Below are positions 1 to 42,290 of a stretch of DNA of 64,000 bases, one piece after another; the stretch's first letter is position 1; each line of letters opens with the position of its first letter. The stretch lies in NCBI GenBank assembly GCA_003209955.1, contig QCOD01000001.1:33330-97329 (forward strand), read 5' to 3'. The position numbers were made by a program, and so were the translations under genes. Source of the stretch: OCS116 cluster bacterium AG-430-B22 (GTDB lineage Bacteria; Pseudomonadota; Alphaproteobacteria; MED-G09). The notes beneath the pieces were generated by a model. The model ran no database searches. It saw only the letters and a list, made by a program, of their open reading frames with translations, and was not told the DNA's origin.

Positions 1-1437
1 ACTCAAGATTTTCCCAAACATCAATTTGCCTGGAAAGTTTTAGGAGCAATATTAGGAGCAACAGGAAGAAATTCCGAAGCCGTAGATGCTATTCGGACAG
101 CAATTGAATTATCCCCTACAGACGTTGCTGCCCATAATAACTTGGGCATCACGCTGAAAGGACTAGGAAGATTGGATGAGGCTGAAGCAAGCTGCAAACG
201 GGCGATAGCTTTAAATCCTAACTTGGCGGAAGTCCATAGCAACTTAGGCAACATACTCAAAGAATTAGACAGATTAGACGAAGCTCTAGCAAGCTATAAC
301 CAAGCGATAGCGCTGAAACCTGACTATGCCGAAGCCCATAGTAACCTCGGTAATGTTTTAAAGGCTAAAGGTAAACTAAAGGATGCAGAAAAGCGCTACC
401 TAAAAGCTATATCCATAAAGCCTGATTATGCTGAAGCTTATTATAATTTAGGTAATATACTTAAAGAGTTAGGTAGATTAGAAAATGCAACTAATGCTTA
501 CAAAAAAGCAATTGAACTTAAATCAGACTATGTCGATGCAAGAATTAATCTTGACAAAGTAATGCAGGGCATTGTGCCAACGTGGCATATAAGCATGATG
601 AATGATGAACTAAGAAATAGCACATTTTCAGATGCAATTAAAATAGCTGTTGATAAAGACTCTTTAGTATTTGAAATTGGTACAGGATCAGGTTTACTAT
701 CAATGATGGCTATTGAGAGTGGAGCAAAAAAAGTTGTCACTTGTGAGTCAATAAAAACAATTTCTGATAATGCAAAAAAAATTATTCATAAAAATGGATA
801 TCAAAAAAAAATAGATGTAATAAATAAGAAATCAACCGAAGTAAAAATTGGTGAAGATATTCCCCATAAGGCAGACTTGCTGATTGCAGAAATTTTATCC
901 TCTGAATTTGTTGGTGAGGGAGTGATAGAAAGTATGTCAGATGCAAATAAAAGATTGCTAAAGAAAAATGGAAGAGTAATACCTCAATCTGGTTGTATAA
1001 AGATTGCTTTGCTTGGCGATACTGAAGAAATAAAAAAATCAACATATATTGATAAATCTGATGGTTTTGACTTATCTCTTTTTAATTCAATTACTCAAAG
1101 AAAATTTTCTCTTAAGCTTAAGGAAAAACCAAAAATTTTAAGTGATGATGAAGATACATTTACAATTAATCTTAAAAATATAGATAATTATTCTAACGAA
1201 GAGAAAGTTTTTAGATTACAAGCAAATCAAGACGGTTTATGTCTTGGATTAATACAATGGATGAAAATAAAGCTTTACGAAGATATTGAGTATGAAAATA
1301 TTCCATACAATGTGCAATCACATTGGAGTACTCCCGTTTATGTATTTGACGAGCCTATTGAATTGAAGAAGGGGCAATTTTTGGATATTAAAGGGTTTCT
1401 AGCTAAGGATAGTGTGTGGTTTAATCATGAAAGTTAG
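1..1437 (+). CDS. TPR-repeat protein fused to a protein-arginine N-methyltransferase (PRMT)-like SAM-dependent methyltransferase; 5' partial (frame is open from base 1)
   Basis: N-terminal half is tandem TPR repeats (AxAHxNLGxxL...AL...Y..AI.L.P repeated about 5 times). C-terminal half carries PRMT motif I (VFEIGTGSGLLSMMAIESGAKKVVTCE), a double-E loop-like segment (AEILSSEFVGEGVIESM) and a THW-loop-like segment (QSHWSTPVY). Frame 1 has no stop from position 1, so the true start lies upstream of the window. Confidence 0.6.
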   Translation, partial: TQDFPKHQFAWKVLGAILGATGRNSEAVDAIRTAIELSPTDVAAHNNLGITLKGLGRLDEAEASCKRAIALNPNLAEVHSNLGNILKELDRLDEALASYNQAIALKPDYAEAHSNLGNVLKAKGKLKDAEKRYLKAISIKPDYAEAYYNLGNILKELGRLENATNAYKKAIELKSDYVDARINLDKVMQGIVPTWHISMMNDELRNSTFSDAIKIAVDKDSLVFEIGTGSGLLSMMAIESGAKKVVTCESIKTISDNAKKIIHKNGYQKKIDVINKKSTEVKIGEDIPHKADLLIAEILSSEFVGEGVIESMSDANKRLLKKNGRVIPQSGCIKIALLGDTEEIKKSTYIDKSDGFDLSLFNSITQRKFSLKLKEKPKILSDDEDTFTINLKNIDNYSNEEKVFRLQANQDGLCLGLIQWMKIKLYEDIEYENIPYNVQSHWSTPVYVFDEPIELKKGQFLDIKGFLAKDSVWFNHES

Positions 1438-1576
1438 AAGCTTGTTAATATAAAGTTATCCAAAGAAGAATTATGATGAAAATTGATAGAAATTTAATGA
1501 GAAATCTAATAAATACTTACTGCATACTTGAAAAAAGTCCTTGTCAATTATTGAATAATAATAGTTTTTTTGTCGT

Positions 1577-2206
1577 GTGCTATTGAGTGGGAATAAAAAA
1601 TTGTCAAAAAAAATTATAAGAATTTCTGAAAGTCAAATACCTGAAAGACTTAGAGGTAGTCGATCTAAAATATTGAGAAAAATTGCTAGATTTGGAATAA
1701 ATATATCTGGCTGGACTATAAAGGGAAAGGTTCCTGATGAAGAAAGAATAGTGATAATTGCTGCTCCTCATACATCAAATTGGGATTTTATTTTGGCTAT
1801 GTTAGCAATCTTTGGATTGAATATTAAGGTACGATGGCTTGGAAAACATTCAATATTTAAACCTGGTTTTAAATTTTTTTTTGAGTGGCTTGGCGGCATT
1901 CCTGTTTATAGGAATAATCCGTCATCATTAATCAAGAATGTTGTAAATATAGTTAAAAAAGAAAGAAGTATTGTTATTGCTATGACCCCCGAGGGCACTA
2001 GAAAGAAAGTAAAGAGGTGGAAAACAGGTTTTTTGAGAATAGCTAAACAAACACATTCAAAAATTTTATTAATTTCTATTGATGCACCAACCAAAAGTAT
2101 AAAAATAGGAAAGATCTTTAACCCTACGGGCAATAGTGAAGAAGATTTAGCTCACATTCAAAAATATTACAGTACCTTTAGAGGTATAAATCCTCAAAAA
2201 TCATAA
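1577..2206 (+). CDS. lysophospholipid (1-acyl-sn-glycerol-3-phosphate) acyltransferase family protein, PlsC-like
   Basis: HxxxxD acyltransferase motif (HTSNWD) followed by a MTPEGTR-type motif; GTG start in the ORF track, true start uncertain. Confidence 0.55.
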   Translation: MLLSGNKKLSKKIIRISESQIPERLRGSRSKILRKIARFGINISGWTIKGKVPDEERIVIIAAPHTSNWDFILAMLAIFGLNIKVRWLGKHSIFKPGFKFFFEWLGGIPVYRNNPSSLIKNVVNIVKKERSIVIAMTPEGTRKKVKRWKTGFLRIAKQTHSKILLISIDAPTKSIKIGKIFNPTGNSEEDLAHIQKYYSTFRGINPQKS

Positions 2207-2225
2207 TTAAAAACTTATTAATTCT

Positions 2226-3857
2226 CTAGTTTTCTTTCGATAAGAATGATTTTCCATTAATATGATCAGATATTTTTTCAGCTATCATAATTGTTGGTGC
2301 ATTTGTGTTTCCAGCAATCAAGCTAGGCATTAATGATGCATCAACAACTCTTAAAGACTCAATTCCGTGAACCTGACCATGTTCATTAGTTACGGCAAGT
2401 TCATCTATGCCCATTTTACAGGTTCCAACTGGATGATAGAGTGTTTCGCCAGTTTCTCTTATCCAATTATCTAATTCATCATCATCATTTATATCTGTGT
2501 TTGATCCTGGTTTAAGTTCTTCACCCCTATATTCATCAAAAACAGGTTGCATAAAGACTCTACGGGCCTCTCTAAGTCCATTTCTAGTATCAATAAGGTC
2601 TTGTTCTACAGAAAAATAATTTGGATACATTAGTGGAGCATCATTTGGATCGGAACTCTTAAGTGTTATATTTCCTCTACTTTGAGGTCTGCATAAATAA
2701 ACAAGGTTAGAAAAACCATGTTCCAGAGGGACGCCCTCTCTACCATGAACATCTTGCATTGCAATTGATACATAATGTATTTGAATATCAGGTATTTCTT
2801 TTTCAGGTTGCGATTTTATAAAAGCACCACCAACGCAGGGTGGATTTGCGGCATCACCAGTCCCTGTTATTAAATATTTCGCTCCAGCCAGCATTGTACT
2901 AAAAAAACCTGCCGATCTATGAAGAGTTACTGGTTGTGTACAAGCAAATTGACTAACTACAGCAAAATGATCCTGTAAATTTTTTCCAACACCTTTGAGC
3001 TCGTGATTAACTTGAATACCATGTTTTTTAATTTCTTCAGAATCTCCAATTCCACTTCTCATTAATATTTGTGGAGAATTTACTGCGCCTGAGGATAAAA
3101 TTACCTCTCTATTACAGCCACTGACCTTCTTTTTACCTTTTTCAAAATATTCAACTCCAATTGCCTTTTTATTTTTGAATACCACCTTGTCCACTGTAAT
3201 ATTTGTTTTGGTATGTAAGTTTTTTCTATTTAACGCAGGATAAAGATAGGCTCTTGCTGAACTAAATCTTTTAGATCCCTTTATAGTATGCTCATATCGA
3301 GAAAAACCCTCTTGCTGTTTTCCATTAAAATCATTTGTTAAAGGGAAACCTGCTTGTTTGCCGGCTTCAACAAACTTATCCAAAAGAATATCATCTTCTC
3401 TTGTTGATTTTTTTACATTTAACGGACCACCTTGCCCGTGAAATTCTTCATCACCATCACCTTCATAGTTTTCAGCTCTTTTAAAGTAGGGTAATACATC
3501 ATCATAAGACCAACCAGGATTACCAAGCTGTCTCCAATGATCATAATCCGAGGAATGTCCTCGCGTATAAATCATCGCATTAATTGATGATGATCCACCC
3601 CACCCCCTTCCTCTGGGCCAATATAATTTTCTTCCAACTGTATTACTTTCTGGTTCAGTTTCGAAACCATAATTTTGCTTGTTTTCTCTAGGAACAATTT
3701 GTGAATAGCCTGAGGGCATATGAATAAATAAGTTTGTATCCTTTCCTCCTGCCTCAATAAGAAGAACAGAGTTTCTATCGTTATCAGACAATTTATTGGC
3801 TAATACGCAACCCGCACTTCCAGCGCCTACAATTATGTAGTCAAAATTTTCTTCCAT
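2226..3857 (-). CDS. GMC-family FAD oxidoreductase (choline/alcohol dehydrogenase-like)
   Basis: N-terminal FAD Rossmann motif DYIIVGAGSAGCVLANKLS; about 540 aa; GMC signature regions; C-terminal catalytic His region (HPVGTCKMG). Confidence 0.85.
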   Translation of the reverse strand: MEENFDYIIVGAGSAGCVLANKLSDNDRNSVLLIEAGGKDTNLFIHMPSGYSQIVPRENKQNYGFETEPESNTVGRKLYWPRGRGWGGSSSINAMIYTRGHSSDYDHWRQLGNPGWSYDDVLPYFKRAENYEGDGDEEFHGQGGPLNVKKSTREDDILLDKFVEAGKQAGFPLTNDFNGKQQEGFSRYEHTIKGSKRFSSARAYLYPALNRKNLHTKTNITVDKVVFKNKKAIGVEYFEKGKKKVSGCNREVILSSGAVNSPQILMRSGIGDSEEIKKHGIQVNHELKGVGKNLQDHFAVVSQFACTQPVTLHRSAGFFSTMLAGAKYLITGTGDAANPPCVGGAFIKSQPEKEIPDIQIHYVSIAMQDVHGREGVPLEHGFSNLVYLCRPQSRGNITLKSSDPNDAPLMYPNYFSVEQDLIDTRNGLREARRVFMQPVFDEYRGEELKPGSNTDINDDDELDNWIRETGETLYHPVGTCKMGIDELAVTNEHGQVHGIESLRVVDASLMPSLIAGNTNAPTIMIAEKISDHINGKSFLSKEN

Positions 3858-3974
3858 TTTTATCCCATTAAAAACTAATGAAATATTATCATGAACTACC
3901 TTTTAATATTTTTCAATAATCAATATATGTGGAATAATTTGCATCTAACTAAAAAAAATTATTAAATAAATATT

Positions 3975-4460
3975 ATGAAAAAGCTTTTAATTATTTTCGC
4001 TATCTCTCTTTATCCTTTAACCTCAGAATCATCTGGCAATCTTGCAAAATATCCTCCAGAAGAAATAGATATCACTATAACAACTTTAAATGATGGATAT
4101 CCTAAAATTGCTCCAGAACAAATTAAACTTATAACTGGTAAATACTATCGTCTAAATATTAACTGTCCTGATGTTAGAGATGATTTAACAGGCTGGCGTA
4201 TAGAAATGTTAGAACTTTTACATAATTCTCATCTTAGATTAGTAACTGTTGGTGATATTGAAATCCATCTTCAGGGTTTAAGCTTTAACGCAATTGAATG
4301 TGACGAAATAGGCTCTGCACATGTTAGCCTTGTTCCAATTAAACCAGGCTCTTATCAACTTTATGTTGGAAATGTTCCTAGTGCAGTAGGCAGACCTATT
4401 GGTGAATCAGGAATACAAGATGATGGAAAATATGTATTTGGTAGTTTTGTTGTTCGTTAA
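3975..4460 (+). CDS. hypothetical secreted protein
   Basis: Hydrophobic N-terminal signal-like segment (MKKLLIIFAISLYPLTSESS); no recognisable motif. Confidence 0.4.
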   Translation: MKKLLIIFAISLYPLTSESSGNLAKYPPEEIDITITTLNDGYPKIAPEQIKLITGKYYRLNINCPDVRDDLTGWRIEMLELLHNSHLRLVTVGDIEIHLQGLSFNAIECDEIGSAHVSLVPIKPGSYQLYVGNVPSAVGRPIGESGIQDDGKYVFGSFVVR

Positions 4461-4471
4461 CTAGTTAAAAA

Positions 4472-5260
4472 ATGTATAAATTAAAAATATTTTCATATAT
4501 TCCTAATCCACGTGTCTGGAAAGCTATTATTGCAGGAAAAATCTGTGGAGTAGAAGTTGAAGTTATAGGTGATAAACCATCTAACCTTGGTTCATGGCTT
4601 TGGGATTTTAACCCTAAGGTTTTGAATGAAAAAGAAAAGAATCCCGATCATAAATATGCTAGGAAAGGCAAAAGAGGTTTTTCAGGAGTTTTATATAAAA
4701 CAGATTCATTTTTGAAGGCTCATCCTTTTGGAACAGTACCGGCTGCATTTAGTCCTGATGGAGATATTGGTATATTCGAGTCTAATAGCATATTAAGAGC
4801 TGTTGCAAGGGTAGGCAAAGAGTTTAATTTATATGGCGAAAATGAATATCAAGCTTCAAGAATTGATAGTTTCCTTGATGCAAATCTAGTTTTTGCAAGA
4901 GAAGCTCAAGTTTATATGTTGGATTATACAAATGTAAGCAAAGAAGGATATGAAAGAGTTTCTGCGGCTTATGAATTTTACTTATCTGGAATTGAGCAAG
5001 CTTTGAATGAGAGTCCTTTCATATCTGGTGAAAATTTGAGTATCGCAGATATATCTTTTGTTTGTGATGTTGCTCAATTTTTAAGAGAAGGGCATTATGA
5101 GGATGTTTTAAAGGATAGAGGCTTTGATTTAGTAGCTAATAATTTCAAAGATGAATATCCAAAAACATTTACACATTTATTCTCTTTAGCTAAAAGAGAT
5201 GAGTTTTCCTTAGTTCTAGGAACATATCTTGATTGGTATAAAGATAAATTAGATATTTGA
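4472..5260 (+). CDS. glutathione S-transferase-like protein
   Basis: Thioredoxin-like N-terminal domain with FESNSILRAV (GST G-site-like Ser/Asn motif); C-terminal helical domain LSIADISFVCDV. Confidence 0.5.
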   Translation: MYKLKIFSYIPNPRVWKAIIAGKICGVEVEVIGDKPSNLGSWLWDFNPKVLNEKEKNPDHKYARKGKRGFSGVLYKTDSFLKAHPFGTVPAAFSPDGDIGIFESNSILRAVARVGKEFNLYGENEYQASRIDSFLDANLVFAREAQVYMLDYTNVSKEGYERVSAAYEFYLSGIEQALNESPFISGENLSIADISFVCDVAQFLREGHYEDVLKDRGFDLVANNFKDEYPKTFTHLFSLAKRDEFSLVLGTYLDWYKDKLDI

Positions 5261-5278
5261 ACTTTTGTTGATTGAAAA

Positions 5279-5926
5279 ATGAAATTTATAATTTTTGACT
5301 TAGATGACACCTTATTATGCGGGGATTGCGAAGCAGGGTGGATAAATTTTCTTATTGCTAAAGGGTTATTAAATGGCGATGAGCACTCATCAAAACTTAA
5401 TCAATTTGATATTGATTACAGGAAGGGTATTCTTAATTTTGATGAATACTCAAGCTATATTCAGGCACCTCTCAAAAATTTAGATGTCAGTACAGTAGAA
5501 AAGTTAGTGGATGAATTTATTAAAAATAATATTGATGATTTAACAGATGACCTAACTACTGACCTTTTAAAAGAGGCAAAATCCGCAGATAAAGTTCTCA
5601 TTGCATCGGGATCACATAATTTTCTTGTAAAAGGTTTTGCTGAATATTTTGGAATAGAATTTAGTATTGGGACACCAGTTGAAATAAAAGATGATATCTT
5701 TACAGGCAGCTTATTGGGTGAACCAACATTTAGTGAAGGAAAAGTTAAGGCTGTTAAGAATTGGTGTTCTGAAAATAATTTAAAAATTGAAGATTCAATT
5801 TTTTATTCAGACTCAATAAATGATCTTCCAATGTTTGAAGCTTGTGGCGATCCAATAGTTGTAAATCCTGACGATAATTTAAGAAAGATTGCTATAGATA
5901 GGTCATATAAGATTTTAAGTAGATGA
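5279..5926 (+). CDS. HAD-IB family hydrolase (phosphoserine-phosphatase-like)
   Basis: HAD motif I FDLDDTL; motif IV SDSINDLPMFEA typical of the SerB/HAD-IB subfamily. Confidence 0.65.
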   Translation: MKFIIFDLDDTLLCGDCEAGWINFLIAKGLLNGDEHSSKLNQFDIDYRKGILNFDEYSSYIQAPLKNLDVSTVEKLVDEFIKNNIDDLTDDLTTDLLKEAKSADKVLIASGSHNFLVKGFAEYFGIEFSIGTPVEIKDDIFTGSLLGEPTFSEGKVKAVKNWCSENNLKIEDSIFYSDSINDLPMFEACGDPIVVNPDDNLRKIAIDRSYKILSR

Positions 5927-5968
5927 TTTATTTAAAAAATCTAATTTAATAAAACTATAAATAAAATA

Positions 5969-6175
5969 ATGAAGAAATTTTCTGAAAGTGAAAAAAGTGA
6001 AATTATTGAATTGGCCTTATCTGACCATGCTAGTTTTAATAACATTAGATCAATTTATGGGATTGGAGAAAAAGATGTTAAGAAGCTAATGAGAGAAAAC
6101 TTAAAATCTCGTTCATATAAATCATGGAGAAAAAGAGTTAGAGAATTTTCTGATAGAAGAGAAAAATATAAATAA
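5969..6175 (+). CDS. DUF2805/TIGR03643-like small conserved protein
   Basis: 68 aa; pattern F..IR..YG..E..V..LMR..LK..SYK.WRKRV matches the remembered TIGR03643 consensus. Confidence 0.5.
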   Translation: MKKFSESEKSEIIELALSDHASFNNIRSIYGIGEKDVKKLMRENLKSRSYKSWRKRVREFSDRREKYK

Positions 6176-6266
6176 TTATATGACTTTAATAATTCTTATT
6201 CAAACCAGTTTTAATATATTTTCTTGATACATTTTTAACCAAATGATATTTTGTTAAAAAAATTAA

Positions 6267-8006
6267 TTGGAGAGCCCTATGTATGACTTAATTATTAGAA
6301 ACGGTACTATTATTGATGGCACAGGAAATGATCGATATGTTGCTGATATTGCTATAAAAGATGAAAAAATTTCAGCAATAGGTGAAATTCAAGGATCTGC
6401 CAATAAGGAGATTGATGCTAAAGGTAAGTTAGTGACTCCTGGATGGGTTGATGTTCATACACATTATGATGGCCAAGCTACATGGGATCCAGTTTTAGCA
6501 CCATCAAGTTGGCATGGTGTGACAACAGTAGTTATGGGTAACTGCGGTGTAGGTTTTGCACCTGTTAAACCAAAGGATAGGGATTTCCTTATTGAGTTAA
6601 TGGAGGGAGTTGAAGATATTCCAGGCGCTGCTCTATCTGAAGGTATTGATTGGCAATGGGAGAGTTTTCCTGAATATCTTGATGCGTTAGAGTCTTTTCC
6701 TAGAGCAATTGATGTTGCGACCCAGGTCCCCCATGGAGCAATACGTGCTTATGTAATGGGAGAGCGTTGTAATTCAGATTATGCTCCCACAAAAGATGAA
6801 GTAGATCAAATGGCTGAGTTAGTTAGAGAGGGTGTAGAGGCTGGAGCATTAGGTTTTTCTAGTTCTAAAACCTTATTACACAAAGACATTCATGGAGAAT
6901 ATATGCCAGGAACTTTTTCTGGAAATGAGGAAATGTTAGCACTTGGCTTAGGGATGAAGGGTCTAAATAACTCCGTTTTTGAATTAGTATCAGATCATTT
7001 AGGGGAAGATGAAGAATGGGAATGGGTAAAGGATTTTCAGAAGCAGACAGGTTTGACTGTAACTTTAATTGCAACGACTGCCCCTGCTTACAAAAACAAT
7101 AAGATGTATAATCTTGCAGAGCAAGCACGCCTTGAAGGTCATGAAATTAGACCGCAAGCTGCCGGAAGACCTACTGGTGTTTTACATGGTCTTCAGTCAA
7201 GTTTTCATGCATTTGTTGGACATCCAACTTGGAAAAATGAACTTGCATCCCTTGATCATGATGAATTACTAGCTAGATTACGTGATCCAGCGACAAAAAA
7301 GAAAATTCTTGCTGAAGAAACTACTATCAAAAATGAATTATTGCAGGATCTACCATCTTTAATGGGTCAGGTTTTTCCACTTGGTGAAAAACCAAATTAT
7401 GAACCAGAGTTCAAAGATAGTGTAGCTGGTATTGCTCTAGAGCGTGATTTAGATGTTATGGAGGTAATGTATGATCTTCTTGTTCAAGGAGAAGGCAAAG
7501 AACTTTTCTATCAACCCTTAGGTGGATATCATACATATGATTTAGAGCCTCACAAAAAATTATTGGAACATCCAAATGTATTGTTTGGGCTAAGTGACGG
7601 AGGAGCTCATTGTGGAGTGATTGCAGATGCTGGTATGCCTACATTTATAATGACACACTGGGGTCGAGATAGAACTCGTGGCGATAAATTATCTTTAGAG
7701 TTTATTGTAAAGTCTCTTACATCAAGTACTGCAGAAGCATTTGGTATGTTTGATAGAGGTTATATCAAAGAAGGAAAAATTGCTGATATCAATATCATCG
7801 ATTTTGATTCAATGAGACTGCATAGACCCGAAGCAATATTTGATTTACCTGCAGGTGGAAGAAGGTTAGTTCAAAAACCTGAAGGTTATGAAATAACCGT
7901 TAAAGCTGGCGAAGTTATCTTTGATAATGGCGTTCATACAGGAGCGCTTCCAGGAAAACTAGTACGTAGAAGTAATGAAAAAAGAGAAATGGCTGTTAAT
8001 AGCTAA
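6267..8006 (+). CDS. N-acyl-D-amino-acid deacylase (D-aminoacylase) family amidohydrolase
   Basis: N-terminus DLIIRNGTIIDGTGN...GWVDVHTHYD (metal-binding HxH); length 579 aa; C-terminal composite amidohydrolase domain typical of D-aminoacylases. Confidence 0.8.
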   Translation: MESPMYDLIIRNGTIIDGTGNDRYVADIAIKDEKISAIGEIQGSANKEIDAKGKLVTPGWVDVHTHYDGQATWDPVLAPSSWHGVTTVVMGNCGVGFAPVKPKDRDFLIELMEGVEDIPGAALSEGIDWQWESFPEYLDALESFPRAIDVATQVPHGAIRAYVMGERCNSDYAPTKDEVDQMAELVREGVEAGALGFSSSKTLLHKDIHGEYMPGTFSGNEEMLALGLGMKGLNNSVFELVSDHLGEDEEWEWVKDFQKQTGLTVTLIATTAPAYKNNKMYNLAEQARLEGHEIRPQAAGRPTGVLHGLQSSFHAFVGHPTWKNELASLDHDELLARLRDPATKKKILAEETTIKNELLQDLPSLMGQVFPLGEKPNYEPEFKDSVAGIALERDLDVMEVMYDLLVQGEGKELFYQPLGGYHTYDLEPHKKLLEHPNVLFGLSDGGAHCGVIADAGMPTFIMTHWGRDRTRGDKLSLEFIVKSLTSSTAEAFGMFDRGYIKEGKIADINIIDFDSMRLHRPEAIFDLPAGGRRLVQKPEGYEITVKAGEVIFDNGVHTGALPGKLVRRSNEKREMAVNS

Positions 8007-8811: not shown

Positions 8812-9237
8812 ATGAATTTTTTATCTAATATTTTAATTGCCCTCAAACTCCCTGCAGGTATTTGGAAGAATTTTGTTTTGTTTGGTCTATCTGTTTTTTT
8901 TATCTATTTTGGTATAGATCACTTCATTAATCCAGATTTTTATTTATCTATTATGCCTCCATCATTTCCATTACATGAAGAGGCAGTATATATAAGTGGT
9001 TTTTTTGAAATAGTTGGTGGTATAGGTGTTTTAATTCCTCGCTTTCGTAAAATAGCAGGATGGGGTTTAGTTGCTCTTTTAATTGCTGTTTATCCAGCTA
9101 ATATTTATATGGCCATAACTCCAGAAGCATTTCCAGATATTCCAGTTGAAATGCTTTATTTTCGTCTTGTATTACAATTTTTATTTTTCTATTGGGCTTA
9201 TTCAGTAACACGTCCGGTATTTAATTTAGTAAGTTAA
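8812..9237 (+). CDS. DoxX-like small membrane protein
   Basis: 141 aa, 4 predicted TM segments; GxFEIVGGIGVLIP and LIAVYPANIYMA resemble the DoxX-like family. Confidence 0.4.
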   Translation: MNFLSNILIALKLPAGIWKNFVLFGLSVFFIYFGIDHFINPDFYLSIMPPSFPLHEEAVYISGFFEIVGGIGVLIPRFRKIAGWGLVALLIAVYPANIYMAITPEAFPDIPVEMLYFRLVLQFLFFYWAYSVTRPVFNLVS

Positions 9238-15195: not shown

Positions 15196-17523
15196 TTGAA
15201 AAATTTACTTTTAGCGCTTTTGTTTGTGGGTGCTTTAATAATACACAATGAAAAAATATATTCGAGTGAGATAGATGAAATTGTAGTTACATCATCTTAC
15301 ATTGATAAAAACCTATCAGACCTAGACGATCCAATTCATGTAATTGGGGGAGATGATGCCACTTTTGACTCTACAGTAAGCTTAGGAGAGTCACTTGATA
15401 ATCTTCTTGGAGTTCAATCCTCAGATTTTGGTGCAGCTGTTGGTCATCCTATCATTCGTGGTTTATCAGGTAATAGAGTTAGAATTATGAATAATGGTAA
15501 AACTCTAAGAGATGTTTCTACTATTGGTGACGATCATATGAATGAGGTTGATTTAAATGATATCCAACAAATAGAAATAGTTAGAGGACCATCATCACTT
15601 CTATATTCTAGTGGGACTGTTGGAGGCATAATAAATATCATTGATAATACAATTGCTAGAGAAGATTTTAAAGAACCCAAATTTAATATTGCTTTAGAAA
15701 CCCAATCTGTTAACGAAGGAGAAGCTGGAAGTTTTTCTTATCAAAATAACATTGGTGGTTTCAATGTAAGTTTGGCTTATAAAGATTCTCAGTTTGATAA
15801 TTATGATATTCCAAATGGTGCAATCATTCATGCCGAGGATGAGCATCACGATGAAGATGAGCATCACGATGAAGATGAGCATCACGATGAAGAAAATCTT
15901 GGTTACTTAGAAAACTCTGACTTTGAATCAACATCACAAAGATTTGGTATTTCAAAAACAGGTGAATGGGGATATTTCGGTATTTCTTATAAGAATTCTG
16001 AAAGTCTTTTTGGTGTTCCATTCCACGGTGATGGTCACGAAGATCATGGAATGCATGGTAAAGAAGAACATCATGAAGAAGAAGCACATCATGATGAAGA
16101 TGAGCATCATGATGAAGATGAACATGAAGGTCATGATGAGCATGAAGGTGAAAGAATTTTTTCCAATACAGAATCTGATATTTTTGATGTTGAAGGTTCT
16201 TATGTCGTTAATAGTTCTTGGCTGAAAAAGATTAATTATTTCTTTAGATCTTCAGATTATCTTCATACTGAGCAACATGCTGAAGAAGAACATCATGAAG
16301 AAGAAGAGCATCATGACGAAGATGAGCATCATGACGAAGATGAGCATGATGAACATGGTCATGCTGAAGGCCCAACAAATTTTGAAAATAAATCTAAGGA
16401 GTTTGGTTTTGTTTTTGATTTAACAAATGATGTTGTTAAGCAAAAATTATCTATCAATTATGTAGAAGAAGAAATTTCTATAGTTGGTGCTGAAGCATTT
16501 ATGAGGCCAACAGATAATGAAGAATTATCCATTGGTTATTATTTGTCTAAAGAATTTGGATTATTCGATGTTGATTTCGGTATTAGGTATGATGATATTT
16601 CTCGTAAAGGTTCATTAGCTCATCATGAAGAAGAGCATCACGATGAAGACGAACATCACGATGAAGACGAACATCACGATGAAGACGAACATGAAGAGGA
16701 AATTGACTTCTTTAATAAAGATTATAGCGAAACAAGTTTTGCTGTTAATTTTTCAAGAGAAGTTAATGATAACTTTACAGTTAGTCTAGGCCTAGCAAGA
16801 GTTGAAAGAGCGCCATCACCAGTAGAGTTATATATGAATGGAGCTCATTTAGTTACTGGTCGCTTTGAAGTCGGCAATACAGAACTTGAATCTGAGAGCG
16901 CTAACAACATTGATTTGAATGTATTTTATAAAAATAATAATTTCTCTTTTAGAGGTAATATATTCAAAAATGATATTGATAACTACATCTATCTACAAGA
17001 TGAAACGGAAGAAGAGCATGAAGAGCATGAAGAGCATGGCGATCATGATGACCATGGTGGTCTTATATTAGCAAACTTCCTGCAAAAAGATGCTGAACTT
17101 GAAGGTTATGAATTTGAAGTTAGTCAGATTTTTACTTTTGATAGAGGTAATCTTACTTTATCATTCGGCAGAGACTCAGTTACAGGCGAGTTTAAGAATG
17201 GAATGAATATTCCAAGAATTGTGCCTGCAAGAAATATTATAACTGTCTCTTACTCAGAAGATAATCTTCTAGCAAGATTGACTTATAAAGATGTTGAAGA
17301 GCAAAATGATATTGGAGAAGGTGAAACAGCAACTGAAGCTTATGAAATGCTTGATTTTTCTTTAAAGAAAACTTTTGTTCTTAATAATCAAAATGAAATA
17401 AGTTTATCATTGTTTGGTAAGAATCTTCTTGACGAAGTGGCCAGAAATCACGCTTCTTTTGTTAAAAATGAAGTTCCTTTACCAGGAAGAAATTATGGTC
17501 TTAAATTAAATTATAAATTTTAA
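15196..17523 (+). CDS. TonB-dependent outer-membrane receptor with five His/Asp/Glu-rich insertions
   Basis: Signal peptide; TonB-box-like EIVVTSS; plug-domain motifs (IRG..G..RV....NG); C-terminal terminal Phe (KLNYKF). Five low-complexity insertions (EHHDEDEHHDEDEHHDE and variants) sit in the barrel region. TTG start with AAGGAGA RBS 5 nt upstream. Confidence 0.8.
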   Translation: MKNLLLALLFVGALIIHNEKIYSSEIDEIVVTSSYIDKNLSDLDDPIHVIGGDDATFDSTVSLGESLDNLLGVQSSDFGAAVGHPIIRGLSGNRVRIMNNGKTLRDVSTIGDDHMNEVDLNDIQQIEIVRGPSSLLYSSGTVGGIINIIDNTIAREDFKEPKFNIALETQSVNEGEAGSFSYQNNIGGFNVSLAYKDSQFDNYDIPNGAIIHAEDEHHDEDEHHDEDEHHDEENLGYLENSDFESTSQRFGISKTGEWGYFGISYKNSESLFGVPFHGDGHEDHGMHGKEEHHEEEAHHDEDEHHDEDEHEGHDEHEGERIFSNTESDIFDVEGSYVVNSSWLKKINYFFRSSDYLHTEQHAEEEHHEEEEHHDEDEHHDEDEHDEHGHAEGPTNFENKSKEFGFVFDLTNDVVKQKLSINYVEEEISIVGAEAFMRPTDNEELSIGYYLSKEFGLFDVDFGIRYDDISRKGSLAHHEEEHHDEDEHHDEDEHHDEDEHEEEIDFFNKDYSETSFAVNFSREVNDNFTVSLGLARVERAPSPVELYMNGAHLVTGRFEVGNTELESESANNIDLNVFYKNNNFSFRGNIFKNDIDNYIYLQDETEEEHEEHEEHGDHDDHGGLILANFLQKDAELEGYEFEVSQIFTFDRGNLTLSFGRDSVTGEFKNGMNIPRIVPARNIITVSYSEDNLLARLTYKDVEEQNDIGEGETATEAYEMLDFSLKKTFVLNNQNEISLSLFGKNLLDEVARNHASFVKNEVPLPGRNYGLKLNYKF
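15835..15894 (+). repeat. in-frame tandem 18-nt repeat block 1: (gagcatcacgatgaagat)x3, encoding (EHHDED)3
   Basis: Three perfect or near-perfect 18-nt units at 15841-15858, 15859-15876 and 15877-15894, read directly from the sequence. Confidence 0.9.
16030..16150 (+). repeat. in-frame His/Asp/Glu codon repeat block 2 (degenerate 18-nt units)
   Basis: gcacatcatgatgaagat / gagcatcatgatgaagat / gaacatgaaggtcatgat / gagcatgaaggt, preceded by ggtcacgaagatcatgga...gaacatcatgaagaagaa. Confidence 0.8.
16270..16368 (+). repeat. in-frame His/Asp/Glu codon repeat block 3
   Basis: gaagaacatcatgaagaagaagagcatcatgacgaagatgagcatcatgacgaagatgagcatgatgaacatggtcatgct. Confidence 0.8.
16618..16698 (+). repeat. 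in-frame tandem 18-nt repeat block 4: gagcatcacgatgaagac then (gaacatcacgatgaagac)x2
   Basis: Units at 16633-16650, 16651-16668 and 16669-16686, followed by gaacatgaagag. Confidence 0.9.
17007..17060 (+). repeat. in-frame Glu/His codon repeat block 5: (gaagagcat)x3 then ggcgatcatgatgaccatggt
   Basis: EEEHEEHEEHGDHDDHGG encoded by 9-nt repeats read directly. Confidence 0.8.
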
Positions 17524-34324: not shown

Positions 34325-35092
34325 ATGATAAAAAAATTAGATAATAAAGTTGCTATAATTACCGGCGGAGCTGGCGGAATAGGGAAGGCAATAGCAATAG
34401 AATTTTTAAATCAAGGATCTGATGTATTGCTTTTTGATTTAAATGAAAGCGACTTAAAAAACTTGTGCCAAGAAATTGGCTCTAATCACCTTAGCTATTG
34501 CGCAGGTGACGTAACTTCTATTGAGGATAATTTAAGAGCTGTAGAAATAGCAAAAGAGAAATTTGGAGGTCTTGATATTTTTGTTGCAAATGCTGGCATT
34601 GAAGGTGATGTTAAAAATTTAGAAGATTATGATATTGATAAATTTGATCAAGTTATGGCTGTAAATGTGAAAGGGCCTTTTTTAGGTTTGAAGGCATCCA
34701 TTCCAGCACTAACTGATAGAGGAGGTGGAAGTTTTATTATAACTTCTAGTATCGCAGGTTTATCTGGTGCGCCACAAATAGGCGCCTATGCAACAAGTAA
34801 GCATGCCGTAATTGGTTTGATGAAATCTGCCGCAAAAGAGAATGCTGAAAAAAATATAAGAGTAAACACAGTTAACCCATCTCCTGTTGAGACAAGAATG
34901 ATGCGCAGTCTAGAGGAAGGATTGATGCCGGGTGAGTCTGAGCAAGCTAAAGATCTTATGGAATCAAATATTCCATTAGGTAGATATGGTAAACCCGAAG
35001 ATGTAGCCAAAGTAATGCTTTTCCTTGCAAGCGATGATAGTTCTTTTGTTACAGGCTCTGTTTATAATGTTGATGGAGGAAGTACTGCTTAA
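34325..35092 (+). CDS. short-chain dehydrogenase/reductase (SDR)
   Basis: VAIITGGAGGIGKAIA; NAG; YATSKHA. Confidence 0.85.
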   Translation: MIKKLDNKVAIITGGAGGIGKAIAIEFLNQGSDVLLFDLNESDLKNLCQEIGSNHLSYCAGDVTSIEDNLRAVEIAKEKFGGLDIFVANAGIEGDVKNLEDYDIDKFDQVMAVNVKGPFLGLKASIPALTDRGGGSFIITSSIAGLSGAPQIGAYATSKHAVIGLMKSAAKENAEKNIRVNTVNPSPVETRMMRSLEEGLMPGESEQAKDLMESNIPLGRYGKPEDVAKVMLFLASDDSSFVTGSVYNVDGGSTA

Positions 35093-36507
35093 GGCTTAAA
35101 AGGGCCTTTTGCAATATATTTATCCATTGTCTGGTGGTAATGCCTAAGCCTACTTTCCTGATAATTTGCATATGTTATTTTACCAGATTTACTAGCTCGA
35201 ATACCTCTTTCAACCTCAGGTATGTTACTCATATCTTGATCAAAAATAAAACCTATACCAGTTAATTCTTCAGCATCATCCCAGTTTTCATCTTCATTTA
35301 GATAATGTATTGGGATTGGTTCATACTTTTCTTGCTTATCAGGATCTTTATGATTTCTTTGCAAAAACATAGCTTCCATTATTGCAGAGTCTTCTCTATT
35401 TCCATTTGGTCGAAATCTATAGATAAGGTTTCTTGGAAAGCCACCCCAGGGTGAAAAATTTGGAAATACATTATAAACTATTGCATCAAGCATTTCTGCA
35501 TCTGATTTATCAGAGTAATCATGTCCATCGGCTTCTTCAAAGGCATCTCTCATAGCTTGTGCTGCAACCTTTCTAGCCTCCTCTCCTTCTGGGACGAGTA
35601 TCTTATCATCTGCAGCCATTCGACCAGATCCATAAAAAATGGTATCTAATATTTCTTGTTCATCTACATTTTTAAGATTTGGGCTTGGTTTTCCCGTTAA
35701 GGCAATATTTCTATTCATATGATCGCCATAAATATCATATCGTGCATTTTCATCTGCTTGGAAAGGTAAAATTTCTGGGTGAATTAATGTCGCATGAAAA
35801 GATTCCATAAATGCTTCTTGAACTGTTTTCCAGTTACCCGGAACCACTTTTGAAACATGAATAACTTTTTTACAATCACCTAAATTCCATCTTTTATGGT
35901 GTTCTGGAAGAGGAGCAAGGTATTCTTCTAATGAGACAGCCTTATCATCCATATTAATAAATACAAAGCCTTCCCAAATCTCAACTCTAACTTCAGGAAG
36001 CTTAAAATCTCTATCTTTTATGTGCTGAAAATCCCATGAAGCAGGAGTAAATTTTAATGATCCATCTAAATTCCAACAAAAACCATGGAAAGGACATTGT
36101 AGATCTTTACCAAATCCGCGTTCAGTTTTTATTCTTCTACCTCTATGCAAACAGCTATTATAAAAAGCTTGAATTTTATCTTCTTCAGATCTCACAATCA
36201 AAAAAGACCAATCAAGTATATCATATACAAGGCTGTCACCAACTTCCGGAATATCCTCTACTCTGCATGCAAATTGCCAGACTCTAGTCCACATACAGTC
36301 TCTTTCTTTTTCAAAAAATTCTTTAGAAATGTATCTGGAAGTATCAATATCTTCAGAGCCAAGATATTCATAAGTTTCTTCGACCATAAATTCAGGTACT
36401 GTTTTGGCATCTTCCATTAGGTACTCTGTATAGCTTGTATCTGGCGATCTTTCGTCACCAGTTTTAACAACTGAAAGTTTTTGATTTTCTTTTTTTATTT
36501 CACTCAT
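35089..36507 (-). CDS. Rieske [2Fe-2S] non-heme-iron oxygenase, alpha (catalytic) subunit
   Basis: Rieske motif CLHRG-x16-CPFHGFCW; mononuclear Fe ligands EAFMESFHATLIHP plus downstream Asp; 472 aa. Confidence 0.85.
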   Translation of the reverse strand: MSEIKKENQKLSVVKTGDERSPDTSYTEYLMEDAKTVPEFMVEETYEYLGSEDIDTSRYISKEFFEKERDCMWTRVWQFACRVEDIPEVGDSLVYDILDWSFLIVRSEEDKIQAFYNSCLHRGRRIKTERGFGKDLQCPFHGFCWNLDGSLKFTPASWDFQHIKDRDFKLPEVRVEIWEGFVFINMDDKAVSLEEYLAPLPEHHKRWNLGDCKKVIHVSKVVPGNWKTVQEAFMESFHATLIHPEILPFQADENARYDIYGDHMNRNIALTGKPSPNLKNVDEQEILDTIFYGSGRMAADDKILVPEGEEARKVAAQAMRDAFEEADGHDYSDKSDAEMLDAIVYNVFPNFSPWGGFPRNLIYRFRPNGNREDSAIMEAMFLQRNHKDPDKQEKYEPIPIHYLNEDENWDDAEELTGIGFIFDQDMSNIPEVERGIRASKSGKITYANYQESRLRHYHQTMDKYIAKGPFKP

Positions 36508-36681: not shown

Positions 36682-37080
36682 ATGAATAATATGGAAGAAA
36701 AATTAGCTATAAGAGAGCTATTAGATAGATACTGTGATGGCGTTAATCAAAGAGATGCTGACATTTGGGGCAGCACATGGTCAGAAAACGCTATCTGGGA
36801 AATTCCACATTTAGATATCAAAAATGAAAGCAAGAAAACAATCGTTAATGTTTGGAATGATGCCATGAAAGGATATCCATTTGTACATATGATAGCTCAA
36901 CCTGGTTTTATTAATATTGATGGTGATAAAGCTTATATGAGAAGTTATACTATTGAAACGGCAGTTTTACCAGATGGAACTGAATTACGACCTTGTGGTC
37001 AATATGATGACGAATGCATTAAAGAAAATGGTGAATGGAAATTTTCTAAGAGATCATTTAGCAATCTTTATGGAGAATAA
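36682..37080 (+). CDS. NTF2-like small protein translationally coupled to the Rieske alpha subunit (candidate divergent beta-like subunit)
   Basis: 132 aa from ATG 36682 (AGGGGG RBS); NTF2/SnoaL-like pattern (LLDRYCDGVNQRDADIWGSTWSENAIWEIP); stop overlaps the downstream Rieske ATG (TAATGA). Confidence 0.5.
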   Translation: MNNMEEKLAIRELLDRYCDGVNQRDADIWGSTWSENAIWEIPHLDIKNESKKTIVNVWNDAMKGYPFVHMIAQPGFINIDGDKAYMRSYTIETAVLPDGTELRPCGQYDDECIKENGEWKFSKRSFSNLYGE

Positions 37081-42257: not shown

Positions 42258-42290
42258 AAAGCGTCCTTGTTTAAGGGCGCTTTTTATTTT
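42258..42290. terminator. bidirectional rho-independent terminator between convergent genes
   Basis: aaagcgtcc-ttgtttaa-gggcgc stem-loop flanked by A-run upstream and tttttatttt downstream; overlaps the stop of the minus-strand Rieske gene. Confidence 0.65.

Follow-up and report, generated by a model that had tools for sequence, protein, structure and literature searches.

A bacterial TPR–PRMT fusion gene predicted to encode a TPR-targeted protein arginine methyltransferase

The left end of the 64,000-nt stretch of DNA that we analyzed (the window) carries most of a gene which, judging from sequence comparisons and structural models, is likely to encode a cytoplasmic, SAM-dependent protein arginine N-methyltransferase targeted to its substrate by tetratricopeptide repeats (TPRs). 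Its product combines a TPR superhelix of the OGT/SPINDLY type (nt 1–573) with one complete PRMT catalytic module made of N-terminal helices, a Rossmann fold, a dimerization arm, and a β-barrel (nt 574–1434). As homology searches indicate, such TPR–PRMT proteins form a large bacterial family, to which this individual gene adds one more member. All features of the window described here lie on the + strand.

Open reading frame analysis showed that frame +1 is unbroken over nt 1–1434, which gives 478 aa, and closes with a stop codon at nt 1435–1437. The gene crosses the left edge of the window, and its full extent is given by two close homologs: the protein P0001, of 512 aa and 97% identical to the window protein, and positions 2201–3739 of contig L048, which are 98.9% identical to the window gene at the nucleotide level and also encode 512 aa. 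Because both copies have this length, the gene measures 1539 nt, of which the window holds the last 1437 (478 codons and the stop codon) and lacks the first 34 codons. P0001 shows what the missing N-terminus looks like (MDKSKTPSKKQLTNLLERYQ...): it is hydrophilic and has no hydrophobic stretch, and we therefore read it, by eye, as free of a signal peptide. The surrounding DNA is compact and bacterial (GC content of ~32%), with bacterial-type genes 3' of the TPR–PRMT gene. We found no other TPR or PRMT gene elsewhere within the 64 kb, no Rfam match over the entire window, and no terminator 3' of the gene.

On the evidence of sequence and modeled structure, the C-terminal domain genuinely has the PRMT fold, with PRMT7 and PRMT9 as its closest relatives, and is not a generic class I methyltransferase. 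We base this assignment on a PRMT_C match above the curated cut-off, on fold matches that are exclusively PRMTs, and on the conservation of SAM-binding and catalytic residues. The PRMT_C family of Pfam (PF22528) matches aa 346–469 with 29.6 bits, for a cut-off of 27. When aa 186–478 were searched against PDB sequences, only PRMTs were retrieved, with mouse PRMT7 (5.7e-31), PRMT9 (1e-24), and Trypanosoma brucei PRMT7 (TbPRMT7; 5e-23) in front, and with PRMT1, 3, 2, 8, and CARM1 also matching across the full length. A profile search of the PDB gave the same picture with stronger scores (PRMT7, 8.8e-59; PRMT9, 1e-51; TbPRMT7, 2.3e-44; PRMT1, 1e-36). The AF2 model of the catalytic module (pLDDT 91, pTM 0.87) shows the Rossmann fold, the barrel, and two arm helices; its best Foldseek match is TbPRMT7 (4m38; TMq 0.86, rmsd 2.5), and the 50 highest-ranking PDB structures in this fold search are without exception PRMTs. 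In the full-length AF2 prediction, the double-E region (residues 334–356) is poorly modeled, with a pLDDT below 50. The C-terminal 290 aa hold a single complete module, the protein ending 20 residues past the last barrel strand, and throughout the family the domain is always C-terminal. These matches, together with the Pfam TPRs described below, bear out the fusion of TPRs to a PRMT-like domain that had been proposed from the sequence alone.

Conservation was judged in an alignment of 31 family members sharing 37–65% identity (alignment A1), in all of which R20, the GxGxG loop, E64, E112, E121, and the S and W of the SHW loop are invariant. The N-terminal helix motif WHISMMNDELRN (nt 583–618) contains invariant W10, H11, M14 (its first M), and R20, along with a D conserved in at least 90%; it aligns with "WHFIMLNDTKRN" in PRMT9 and "FHYAMMNDEERN" in TbPRMT7. 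Its arginine corresponds to PRMT1 R54 (the PRMT1 sequence was checked against 6nt2), which we take to be a contact of the SAM carboxylate. Motif I, VFEIGTGSGLLSMMA (nt 667–711), with the GxGxG SAM-binding loop, lies where the sequence-only reading had placed it and aligns to "VLDIGTGTGLLSMMA" of PRMT7; its I41, G42, G44, and G46 are invariant, and the segment VFEIGTGSG aligns to both PRMT7 and PRMT9. The post-I acidic residue, the E of "TCE" (nt 745–747; E64), aligns with the E of "AIE" in PRMT7 and of "ACE" in PRMT9, and presumably contacts the SAM ribose. Downstream, an insertion containing "GFDLSLFN" (nt 1018–1101) occupies the position of the PRMT1 dimerization arm with its "YGFDMS"; AF2 models it as two short helices (H157–163 and H174–179) between barrel strands, and G170, F176, and N177 are conserved. 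The THW-type loop, here SHW (nt 1318–1326), had also been placed correctly: it aligns with "DHW" in PRMT7, "TCW" in PRMT9, and "THW" in PRMT1. S255 and W257 are invariant, while H predominates at the central position, where some distant relatives in the family have G or N instead.

The double-E loop, EILSSEFVGE (nt 889–918), was expected in this region and was indeed found there, but the register first proposed for it was wrong, the true glutamates (AE-x8-GE) lying five residues upstream. They are the E of "IAEIL" (nt 889–891; E112) and the E of "VGEGV" (nt 916–918; E121), that is, the first and last residues of the loop, and they are predicted to form the catalytic, guanidinium-binding pair. 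Both are invariant in A1, are conserved in at least 90% of 150 cluster representatives, and align with E144 and E153 of mouse PRMT7 ("TELFDTELIGEG"). The other glutamates of the region behave differently, the E of "SEF" being variable in the family consensus and the E of "IESM" falling outside the invariant and nearly invariant columns. At the positions equivalent to D147 and E149 of mammalian PRMT7, the two acidic loop residues that determine its monomethylating (type III) specificity and its preference for RXR motifs, the window protein has S and E, so that only the second is retained, and this second position varies across the family.

The N-terminal half had been described as five or more TPRs running past the window, and this description holds: Pfam (TPR_1, TPR_11, and others, E-values down to 3e-44) recognizes five TPR stretches in aa 8–180, and the AF2 model of the full-length protein contains ~6.5 repeats (13 helices; H9–H225, pLDDT above 90). 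The TPR domain of human OGT matches this part with 8e-78. We infer that the superhelix is a substrate-recruiting module. The TPRs of PRMT9 are needed for binding to SF3B2 (PMC13639276), and the TPR domain of the FlmG protein is both necessary and by itself sufficient for binding to flagellin (PMC7591256). By analogy with these two cases, the TPR array of the window protein would bind a specific protein or extended peptide and carry an arginine to the active site. The enzyme would act as a homodimer formed through its arm; the two glutamates would hold the guanidinium group, and a methyl group would be transferred from SAM to yield at least monomethyl-arginine, with SDMA or ADMA as possible further products.

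The sequence-only reading had compared this architecture to that of PRMT9, a comparison that is apt for the order of the domains and for their junction. Residues 154–356 of P0001 align with residues 61–264 of bovine PRMT9 (8rbk) in one stretch with few gaps (203 versus 204 residues), whose coordinates place it across the junction, from the last two TPRs into the Rossmann half. In PRMT9 too (8rbk, 6pdm, 7rbq), N-terminal TPRs are fused straight to a PRMT module, and the two proteins share the helix motif "WHxxM(M/L)NDxxRN" and the spacing of the double E. The comparison fails, however, for the number of parts, because in PRMT9 three TPRs precede a pseudo-dimer of two tandem modules, whereas the window protein has ~6.5 TPRs of the OGT type and one module. 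In addition, PRMT9 has TCW instead of SHW, and its substrate, the splicing factor SF3B2, is absent from bacteria. A fold search with the full-length model ranks 8rbk first, but with a TM score of 0.36 and an rmsd of ~21 Å, so that domain orientations are not comparable. For the catalytic module, PRMT7 (mouse, 4c4a; T. brucei, 4m36 and 4m38; Caenorhabditis elegans, 3wst) is the best match in both sequence and fold; it shares the double-E loop "E-x8-GE(G/S)" and, in TbPRMT7, the "MMND..RN" helix. TbPRMT7 also resembles the window protein in having a single module. By contrast, PRMT7 has no TPR domain, and animal PRMT7 contains two modules.

The neighborhood of the gene and of its relatives provides some indications about its partners. 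In L048, the gene order is guaA, a gene for a TPR-fused 2OG-Fe(II) oxygenase (TPR-2OG-FeII_Oxy_5; P0076), and TPR–PRMT, and the first ~545 nt of the coding sequences of the last two genes, together with ~50 nt upstream, are 100% identical, a perfect 600-nt repeat that could be an assembly artefact, L048 being a short-read metagenome contig. TPR-oxygenases are also found near the TPR–PRMT gene in L024 and L026. Because the N-terminal TPR blocks of the pair in L048 are identical, the TPR–PRMT and the TPR-oxygenase probably act on one common target. Downstream of the window gene, at nt 1510–1596, lies a cassette boundary, consisting of a ~70-nt conserved element followed by the 17-mer CTATTGAGTGGGAATAA (nt 1580–1596). 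This 17-mer duplicates the 3' end of guaA and contains GAGTGGGA, the core of guaA-3' integration by GIsul2 (PMC9376610). It occurs once in the window, for a chance expectation of 0.05, and three times, in exact copies located at gene boundaries, in L048; variants of it flank the TPR–PRMT gene in L021, L022, L029, L028, and L036. The TPR–PRMT and TPR-oxygenase genes would both be cassettes with repeats of the guaA 3' end at their borders, and the TPR–PRMT cassette would vary between strains. A hairpin of the integron attC type 3' of the gene was also considered and was excluded, as DNA folding of this region revealed no structure beyond that of shuffled sequences (z 0.68).

Other loci of the family point to surface proteins and to glycosylation. 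In L032–L034, the homolog adjoins fliC-flaG-fliD and flgH; these flagellin-linked loci represent essentially one lineage, and in the window, whose organism resembles a streamlined marine Pseudomonadota, the annotated ORFs include no flagellar gene. A GT41 gene neighbors the homolog in L037, and P0176 is a TPR–GT41–TPR–PRMT fusion. Other methyltransferases and polysaccharide genes also occur around relatives, and some proteins that resemble the family in the TPR part only have a sulfotransferase, a class I methyltransferase, or a GT41 enzyme as their head. Most loci carry no functional hint, because the neighbors are housekeeping genes, as in L023, L038, and L040. Given the flagellin, OGT-like GT41, methyltransferase, and polysaccharide contexts seen in relatives, the target may be a secreted, surface, or filament protein that would be modified before export. 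FlmG of Caulobacter offers a possible parallel, as its N-terminal TPR domain captures the substrate protein for cytoplasmic modification by the catalytic domain at its C-terminus (PMC7591256). The likeness to OGT and other GT41 enzymes lies in the OGT-like TPRs, in the GT41 genes adjoining relatives, and in the GT41 fusion. In FlmG and OGT, however, the catalytic head is a glycosyltransferase, whereas here it is a PRMT-fold methyltransferase. A bolder scheme, which we put forward tentatively and regard as rather unlikely, is that marine bacteria possess a toolkit in which one TPR targeting block is combined with swappable heads (a PRMT in the window gene, a 2OG-Fe(II) oxygenase in the adjoining paralog) by site-specific recombination at GAGTGGGA at the guaA 3' end, and in which the exchanged enzymes would jointly decorate the same surface, filament, or other protein. 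If this were true, a further step would be that the TPR–PRMT architecture of eukaryotic PRMT9 descends from the bacterial family.

The oxygenase partner also bears on an alternative function, namely that the PRMT fold tailors a peptide or small molecule, methylating guanidino or amino groups of a secondary metabolite together with the oxygenase. The bacterial PRMT-like "peptide methylases" described by Aravind, Iyer, and colleagues, which these authors regard as the bacterial proteins closest to eukaryotic PRMTs, are associated with peptide dioxygenases, antibiotic-like operons, and NRPS genes (PMC3417536), a setting that the 2OG-Fe(II) oxygenase and the extra methyltransferases at other loci recall. 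Those proteins, however, belong to secondary-metabolite operons or are domains of NRPS megasynthases, whereas the proteins of the window family stand alone, are fused to TPRs, and abound in marine plankton, with no biosynthetic cluster seen nearby: no NRPS, precursor-peptide, cyclase, or export gene adjoins it in the window, L048, L023, L038, or L040. Moreover, the oxygenase partner is itself TPR-fused, and long TPR arrays of the OGT type are protein-binding modules. We thus consider a role in metabolite tailoring improbable.

PRMTs are usually presented as eukaryotic enzymes, "found in all eukaryotic systems" (PMC13639276), and it had been assumed from the window sequence that they are rare in bacteria. 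This assumption did not withstand the database searches. The family profile retrieved 1864 clusters (50% identity) at E-values of at most 1e-30, eukaryotic PRMTs counted in; the best 150 of these 1864 clusters all score at least 268 bits, and nearly all of these 150 consist of a C-terminal PRMT module preceded by a long N-terminal extension. Named members come from Pelagibacter, Rhodobacteraceae, Pseudohongiellaceae, Azospirillum, Sphingobium, and Bacteroidota. Among the matches listed in a scan of contigs with the family alignment were distant relatives (31–36% identity) and unrelated class I methyltransferases (L008–L020). Viral contigs gave matches to the Rossmann half only, at 28–32% identity, with no sign of carriage by phages.

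This distribution weighs against a recent acquisition of the gene from a eukaryote, whether as contaminating DNA or as an effector methylating host or prey proteins. Such an origin might be suggested by the closest characterized relatives, PRMT7 and PRMT9, and by TPRs that resemble those of OGT and SPINDLY. Yet the window is bacterial in its genes and base composition, the protein appears to carry no signal peptide, and homologs occur across many bacterial phyla and outscore any eukaryotic PRMT on the family profile, with 206–480 bits versus 110–193 bits per module (spider PRMT7 N-module, ~193; TbPRMT7, 154; PRMT9, 133; PRMT1, 110). In a neighbor-joining tree rooted on PRMT1, which took in four eukaryotic sequences, two of them partial, PRMT9 and animal PRMT7 are basal to the bacterial radiation with deep-node bootstraps of 8–30%, and there is no supported nesting of the bacterial family inside eukaryotes. 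A recent eukaryotic source is therefore very unlikely.

Two further alternatives concern the catalytic module itself, and we judge both extremely unlikely. One is that the module is a pseudo-enzyme serving as a scaffold, like the degenerate second modules of PRMT7 and PRMT9; bacteria do have proteins with tandem modules, and the N-module of those seen here lacks both GxGxG and the double E, but the window protein retains all SAM-binding and catalytic residues, whose invariance at 37–65% identity argues for purifying selection on catalysis. The other, largely refuted by the PRMT_C match, the PDB profile search, and the fold search, is that the protein is an ordinary class I enzyme like PrmA, which methylates lysine and the N-terminus of ribosomal protein L11, and that its PRMT motifs are superficial: PrmA (PF06325) is the sole Pfam methyltransferase-domain match on the Rossmann part (aa 216–334; 1.7e-9, 38 bits for a cut-off of 22) and NCBIfam prmA (TIGR00406) scores 34.8 bits, but the latter has a cut-off of 183, the PrmA match covers the Rossmann core only (106 of 296 profile positions) and not the N-terminal substrate-binding domain of the PrmA models, and the profile and structure comparisons suggested by the sequence-only reading returned PRMTs throughout, with invariant double-E and THW-type elements aligned residue by residue.

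A TPR-targeted arginine methyltransferase thus being the reading that we favor, arginine methylation in bacteria becomes directly testable, because the family is large and conserved, has intact catalytic residues, and occurs in abundant ocean bacteria. Its members have a single module, are ~500 aa long, and bring their own substrate-binding domain, which may suit biochemistry, and three contexts (a TPR-oxygenase partner with the same targeting block, homologs next to flagellin, and fusion to an OGT-like glycosyltransferase) supply substrate hypotheses. The family is also relevant to the source of the TPR–PRMT architecture of PRMT9 and to the proposal of Aravind and colleagues that eukaryotic PRMTs originated in bacteria. 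Our searches of the literature turned up no characterized bacterial PRMT and no study of a member of this family. Should the gene prove to be just another methyltransferase of a flexible genomic island, the gain would be the correction of an annotation, since such proteins are currently named only "tetratricopeptide repeat protein" by NCBI. The names of the clusters at the level of at least 90% disagree on the taxon (SAR86, Alphaproteobacteria, Rhodobiaceae, and Pseudomonadota), and some members already bear the JGI label "protein arginine N-methyltransferase 7".

In frame +1, the window reads without interruption from nt 1 up to the stop codon at 1435–1437, encoding 478 amino acids; the open reading frame listed as 142–1437 merely begins at the first possible start codon within the window. 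Comparison with two full-length homologs, both of 512 aa, P0001 (from Tara Oceans assemblies, 97% identical) and the product of gene 2201–3739 on the 98.9%-identical JGI contig L048, places the true start of the TPR-PRMT gene to the left of the window edge, in agreement with the sequence-only reading, in which the N-terminal part ran past this edge. In both homologs the first window residue is preceded by the N-terminus MDKSKTPSKKQLTNLLERYQNGRYAEAENLAVLM, which is hydrophilic and, read by eye, contains no hydrophobic stretch; on this basis, we take the protein to have no signal peptide. Pfam delimits five TPRs (aa 8–180), a methyltransferase Rossmann part (PrmA model, aa 216–334), and PRMT_C, the PRMT-specific C-terminal subdomain (aa 346–469; 29.6 bits against a curated cut-off of 27).

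When residues 186–478 were compared with all PDB sequences, only protein arginine methyltransferases (PRMTs) were matched: best were mouse PRMT7 (5.7e-31), PRMT9 (1e-24), and Trypanosoma brucei PRMT7 (TbPRMT7; 5e-23), and PRMT1, 3, 2, 8, and CARM1 were matched over full length. A family profile, derived from an alignment of 31 members with 37–65% identity to the query, strengthened these matches (PRMT7, 8.8e-59; PRMT9, 1e-51; TbPRMT7, 2.3e-44) and also retrieved Caenorhabditis elegans PRMT7 (2e-41) and yeast Hmt1/PRMT1 (1e-36). In the AlphaFold2 model of the domain (pLDDT 91, pTM 0.87), a Rossmann fold and a beta-barrel are seen together with two short arm helices; all of the model's best 50 matches in a PDB fold search were PRMTs, headed by TbPRMT7 (TMq 0.86, rmsd 2.5 Å) and mouse PRMT7. 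The residues that define PRMTs are retained, without variation across the family: the N-terminal helix WHISMMNDELRN, whose arginine aligns with PRMT1 R54, motif I (VFEIGTGSG), the post-I glutamate (E of TCE), the two glutamates of the double-E, and SHW in place of the THW loop. The catalytic glutamates, spaced E-x8-E, are those of IAEIL (nt 889–891) and VGEGV (nt 916–918), which align with E144 and E153, respectively, of mouse PRMT7. The C-terminal PRMT hallmarks and the SHW segment proposed from the sequence alone are thus borne out by the alignment; a double-E loop had also been rightly recognized, but in the wrong register, as the glutamates then chosen, those of SEF and IESM, are not conserved. 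Because the PRMT elements align, which they would not in a generic class I methyltransferase, the PRMT assignment stands; it is robust, the protein being a family member by every sequence and structure criterion that could be tested.

Its nearest relatives are PRMT7 and PRMT9. In the full-length model (pLDDT 87.5), 13 helices spanning residues 9–225 form about 6.5 TPRs, consistent with the five or more initially proposed, and lead directly into the PRMT module; the closest likeness of these repeats is to those of O-GlcNAc transferase and SPINDLY. Bovine PRMT9 (8rbk) is, to our knowledge, the only solved PRMT structure that includes its TPRs. Its residues 61–264 align with 154–356 of P0001, with a one-residue length difference, in a single stretch that runs from the final two TPRs across the junction and through the Rossmann half, so that domain order and spacing resemble those of PRMT9. 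8rbk is also the top fold match of the full-length model, with the longest alignment (435 columns), at a TM-score of 0.36 that is too low to judge relative domain orientation. However, PRMT9 and animal PRMT7 each contain two tandem modules, whereas the protein described here has one, like TbPRMT7. The PRMT9-like architecture first suggested therefore holds for domain order and spacing but not for the two-module hallmark: the junction is PRMT9-like, the protein itself is not a PRMT9. With human PRMT1 (sequence 100% identical to 6nt2) as the root, a neighbor-joining tree of 59 modules shows PRMT9 and animal PRMT7 branching near the base and the bacterial TPR-PRMTs forming a derived radiation, with bootstrap values of just 8–30% at deep nodes. 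A link between this family and the origin of PRMT9 is possible.

The same C-terminal domain was found in 97 of the 120 best whole-protein database matches, in every case at the C-terminus behind a varying number of TPRs. The sources include Candidatus Pelagibacter sp., Rhodobacteraceae IMCC15231, Pseudohongiellaceae, and Gammaproteobacteria; NCBI labels these relatives "tetratricopeptide repeat protein" and nothing more, and JGI labels some "protein arginine N-methyltransferase 7". When 1.84 billion cluster representatives were searched with the profile, 15,691 matched with E ≤ 1e-3 and 1,864 with E ≤ 1e-30, eukaryotic PRMTs included. The best 150 all scored at least 268 bits, and in almost all of them the module is C-terminal, after 60–780 residues; with the same profile the N-module of a spider PRMT7 scored about 193 bits, TbPRMT7 154, PRMT9 133, and PRMT1 110. 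More distant TPR-PRMT genes (31–36% identity) occur in Azospirillum, Sphingobium sufflavum, Owenweeksia, Roseivirga, and other Bacteroidota, and all of these keep E-x8-E. The view that such enzymes are rare in bacteria must consequently be abandoned: bacterial TPR-PRMTs are uncharacterized but not rare. The bacterial family to which the protein belongs is large and had been noticed bioinformatically; in the literature searched, we found no characterization of any TPR-PRMT member and no experimental study of the family. Six metagenomic proteins of 676–744 aa (P0199, P0205, P0209, P0213, P0220, and P0278) lack TPRs and carry two PRMT modules in tandem, of which the N-terminal one is degenerate, with neither GxGxG nor a double E, and the other is intact (SETVDHSLLGEG). 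This polarity is opposite to that of PRMT7 and PRMT9, whose active module is the N-terminal one.

On L048, the gene order is the guaA 3′ end, the 600-aa P0076 (a TPR protein with a 2OG-Fe(II)-oxygenase domain, PF13759), a 90-nt spacer, the TPR-PRMT gene, and the acyltransferase gene. Window nt 1 corresponds to L048 2303, and the P0076 region lies just left of the window. A 100%-identical direct repeat of about 600 nt (L048 259–853 and 2151–2745) is common to the two TPR genes; it takes in about 50 nt of upstream sequence and the initial ~545 nt of each coding sequence, which specify the N-terminal cap and TPR1–5. Beyond it the genes differ in their last repeats and catalytic domains. Recent duplication or gene conversion could explain the repeat, as could an artefact of short-read assembly. 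The guaA gene ends (...TIEWE stop) in the 17-mer CTATTGAGTGGGAATAA, of which exact copies occur at each gene boundary of L048 (260–276, 2152–2168, and 3882–3898) and once in the window, just past the PRMT gene (1580–1596; 0.05 expected by chance). Variants with one to three mismatches stand on both sides of the TPR-PRMT gene in contigs L021, L022, and L029, with sites at 1079 and 2809 in L021 and at 129 and 1796 in L029; sites in L036 are at 190 and 1245. Between guaA and the TPR-PRMT gene stand genes for a cytochrome b561 and a small methyltransferase in L027 and an unrelated segment of about 1 kb in L036; in L040, from another assembly, a 53%-identical homolog comes directly after guaA. The 17-mer contains GAGTGGGA, the integration core of GIsul2-type islands at the guaA 3′ end (PMC9376610). 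Ahead of the 17-mer lies a conserved stretch of some 70 nt (window 1510–1579), in which no significant DNA secondary structure was detected; relative to the TPR-PRMT gene, it is on the 3′ side in the window and in L048, and on the 5′ side in L028 and L036. No integrase for the array was seen in the sequences examined. On this evidence, the TPR-PRMT gene has the behavior of a cassette, within an array that varies between strains and occupies a recognized hot spot of integration. The array looks like the product of site-specific recombination at the guaA 3′ end, and a modular-cassette reading of the gene is possible.

Many database proteins match the query in the TPR part only (44–90% identity over 38–40% of its length) and end in a 2OG-oxygenase (2OG-FeII_Oxy_5), sulfotransferase, or class I methyltransferase domain; among them are marine proteins with 44–66% identity (P0028, P0030, P0037, P0043, P0047, P0049, P0064, P0069, P0078, P0079, P0082, P0092, P0094, P0105, P0109, P0111, and P0118). 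One TPR scaffold is therefore joined to several catalytic heads. Homologs also lie in a cluster of TPR-methyltransferase, TPR-oxygenase, and glycosyltransferase genes (L024), beside a TPR protein and a 2OG oxygenase (L026, 95%-identical copy), near a GT41 (OGT-like) glycosyltransferase, a methyltransferase, and an integrase (L037), and with Wzy, sugar-transferase, and UDP-glucose-dehydrogenase genes (L025); in L023, L038, and L040 the neighbors are housekeeping genes only. In three metagenome contigs of one lineage (L032–L034), a 51%-identical homolog of 797–801 aa sits between fliC-flaG-fliD and flgH/flgG, divergent from flagellin (in L033, flagellin 2774–4225 on the minus strand, TPR-PRMT 4560–6965, flgH 7206–7907; same order in L032 and L034). 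Because of this location inside a flagellar gene cluster, flagellin is a candidate substrate in that lineage. The 1077-aa P0176 combines in one polypeptide TPRs, a region judged GT41-like (OGT-like) by eye, another block of TPRs, and, at the C-terminus, a PRMT module, a fusion that suggests glycosylation and arginine methylation on one target.

The protein joins an intact PRMT module to an OGT-type TPR array. Single-module PRMTs dimerize through the arm; the module would do likewise and methylate arginine, at least to the monomethyl state. The TPR array would recruit a specific protein, as the TPRs of PRMT9 recruit SF3B2 (PMC13639276) and the TPR domain of FlmG recruits flagellins (PMC7591256). 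P0076 and the TPR-PRMT probably share one target, because their TPR block is identical. The recurrent glycosyltransferase, methyltransferase, and flagellin neighbors and the flexible-island location suggest that the target belongs to the cell surface or to a filament and is modified prior to its export, the weakest step of this mechanism.

In the window, a PlsC-like acyltransferase gene lies 140 nt downstream of the TPR-PRMT gene, followed by choline dehydrogenase on the opposite strand and unrelated metabolic genes; the 64 kb contain no second TPR or PRMT gene. Two small open reading frames on the plus strand are 3975–4460 (161 aa), matched by neither NCBIfam nor Pfam, and 8812–9237 (141 aa), without an NCBIfam match. 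The whole window is compact (~32% GC) and encodes TonB-dependent receptors, Rieske oxygenases, and sugar symporters; organism names in the clusters of its proteins at ≥90% range from SAR86 through Alphaproteobacteria. Three paralogous Rieske-type oxygenase large subunits fall within 9 kb (35089–36507, minus; 37080–38450, plus; 42284–43720, minus), their top NCBIfam match being glycine-betaine monooxygenase GbcA, far under its cut-off. Together with the two TonB-dependent receptors (15196–17523 and 45226–47682), these paralogs fit a streamlined marine heterotroph of the SAR86 type.
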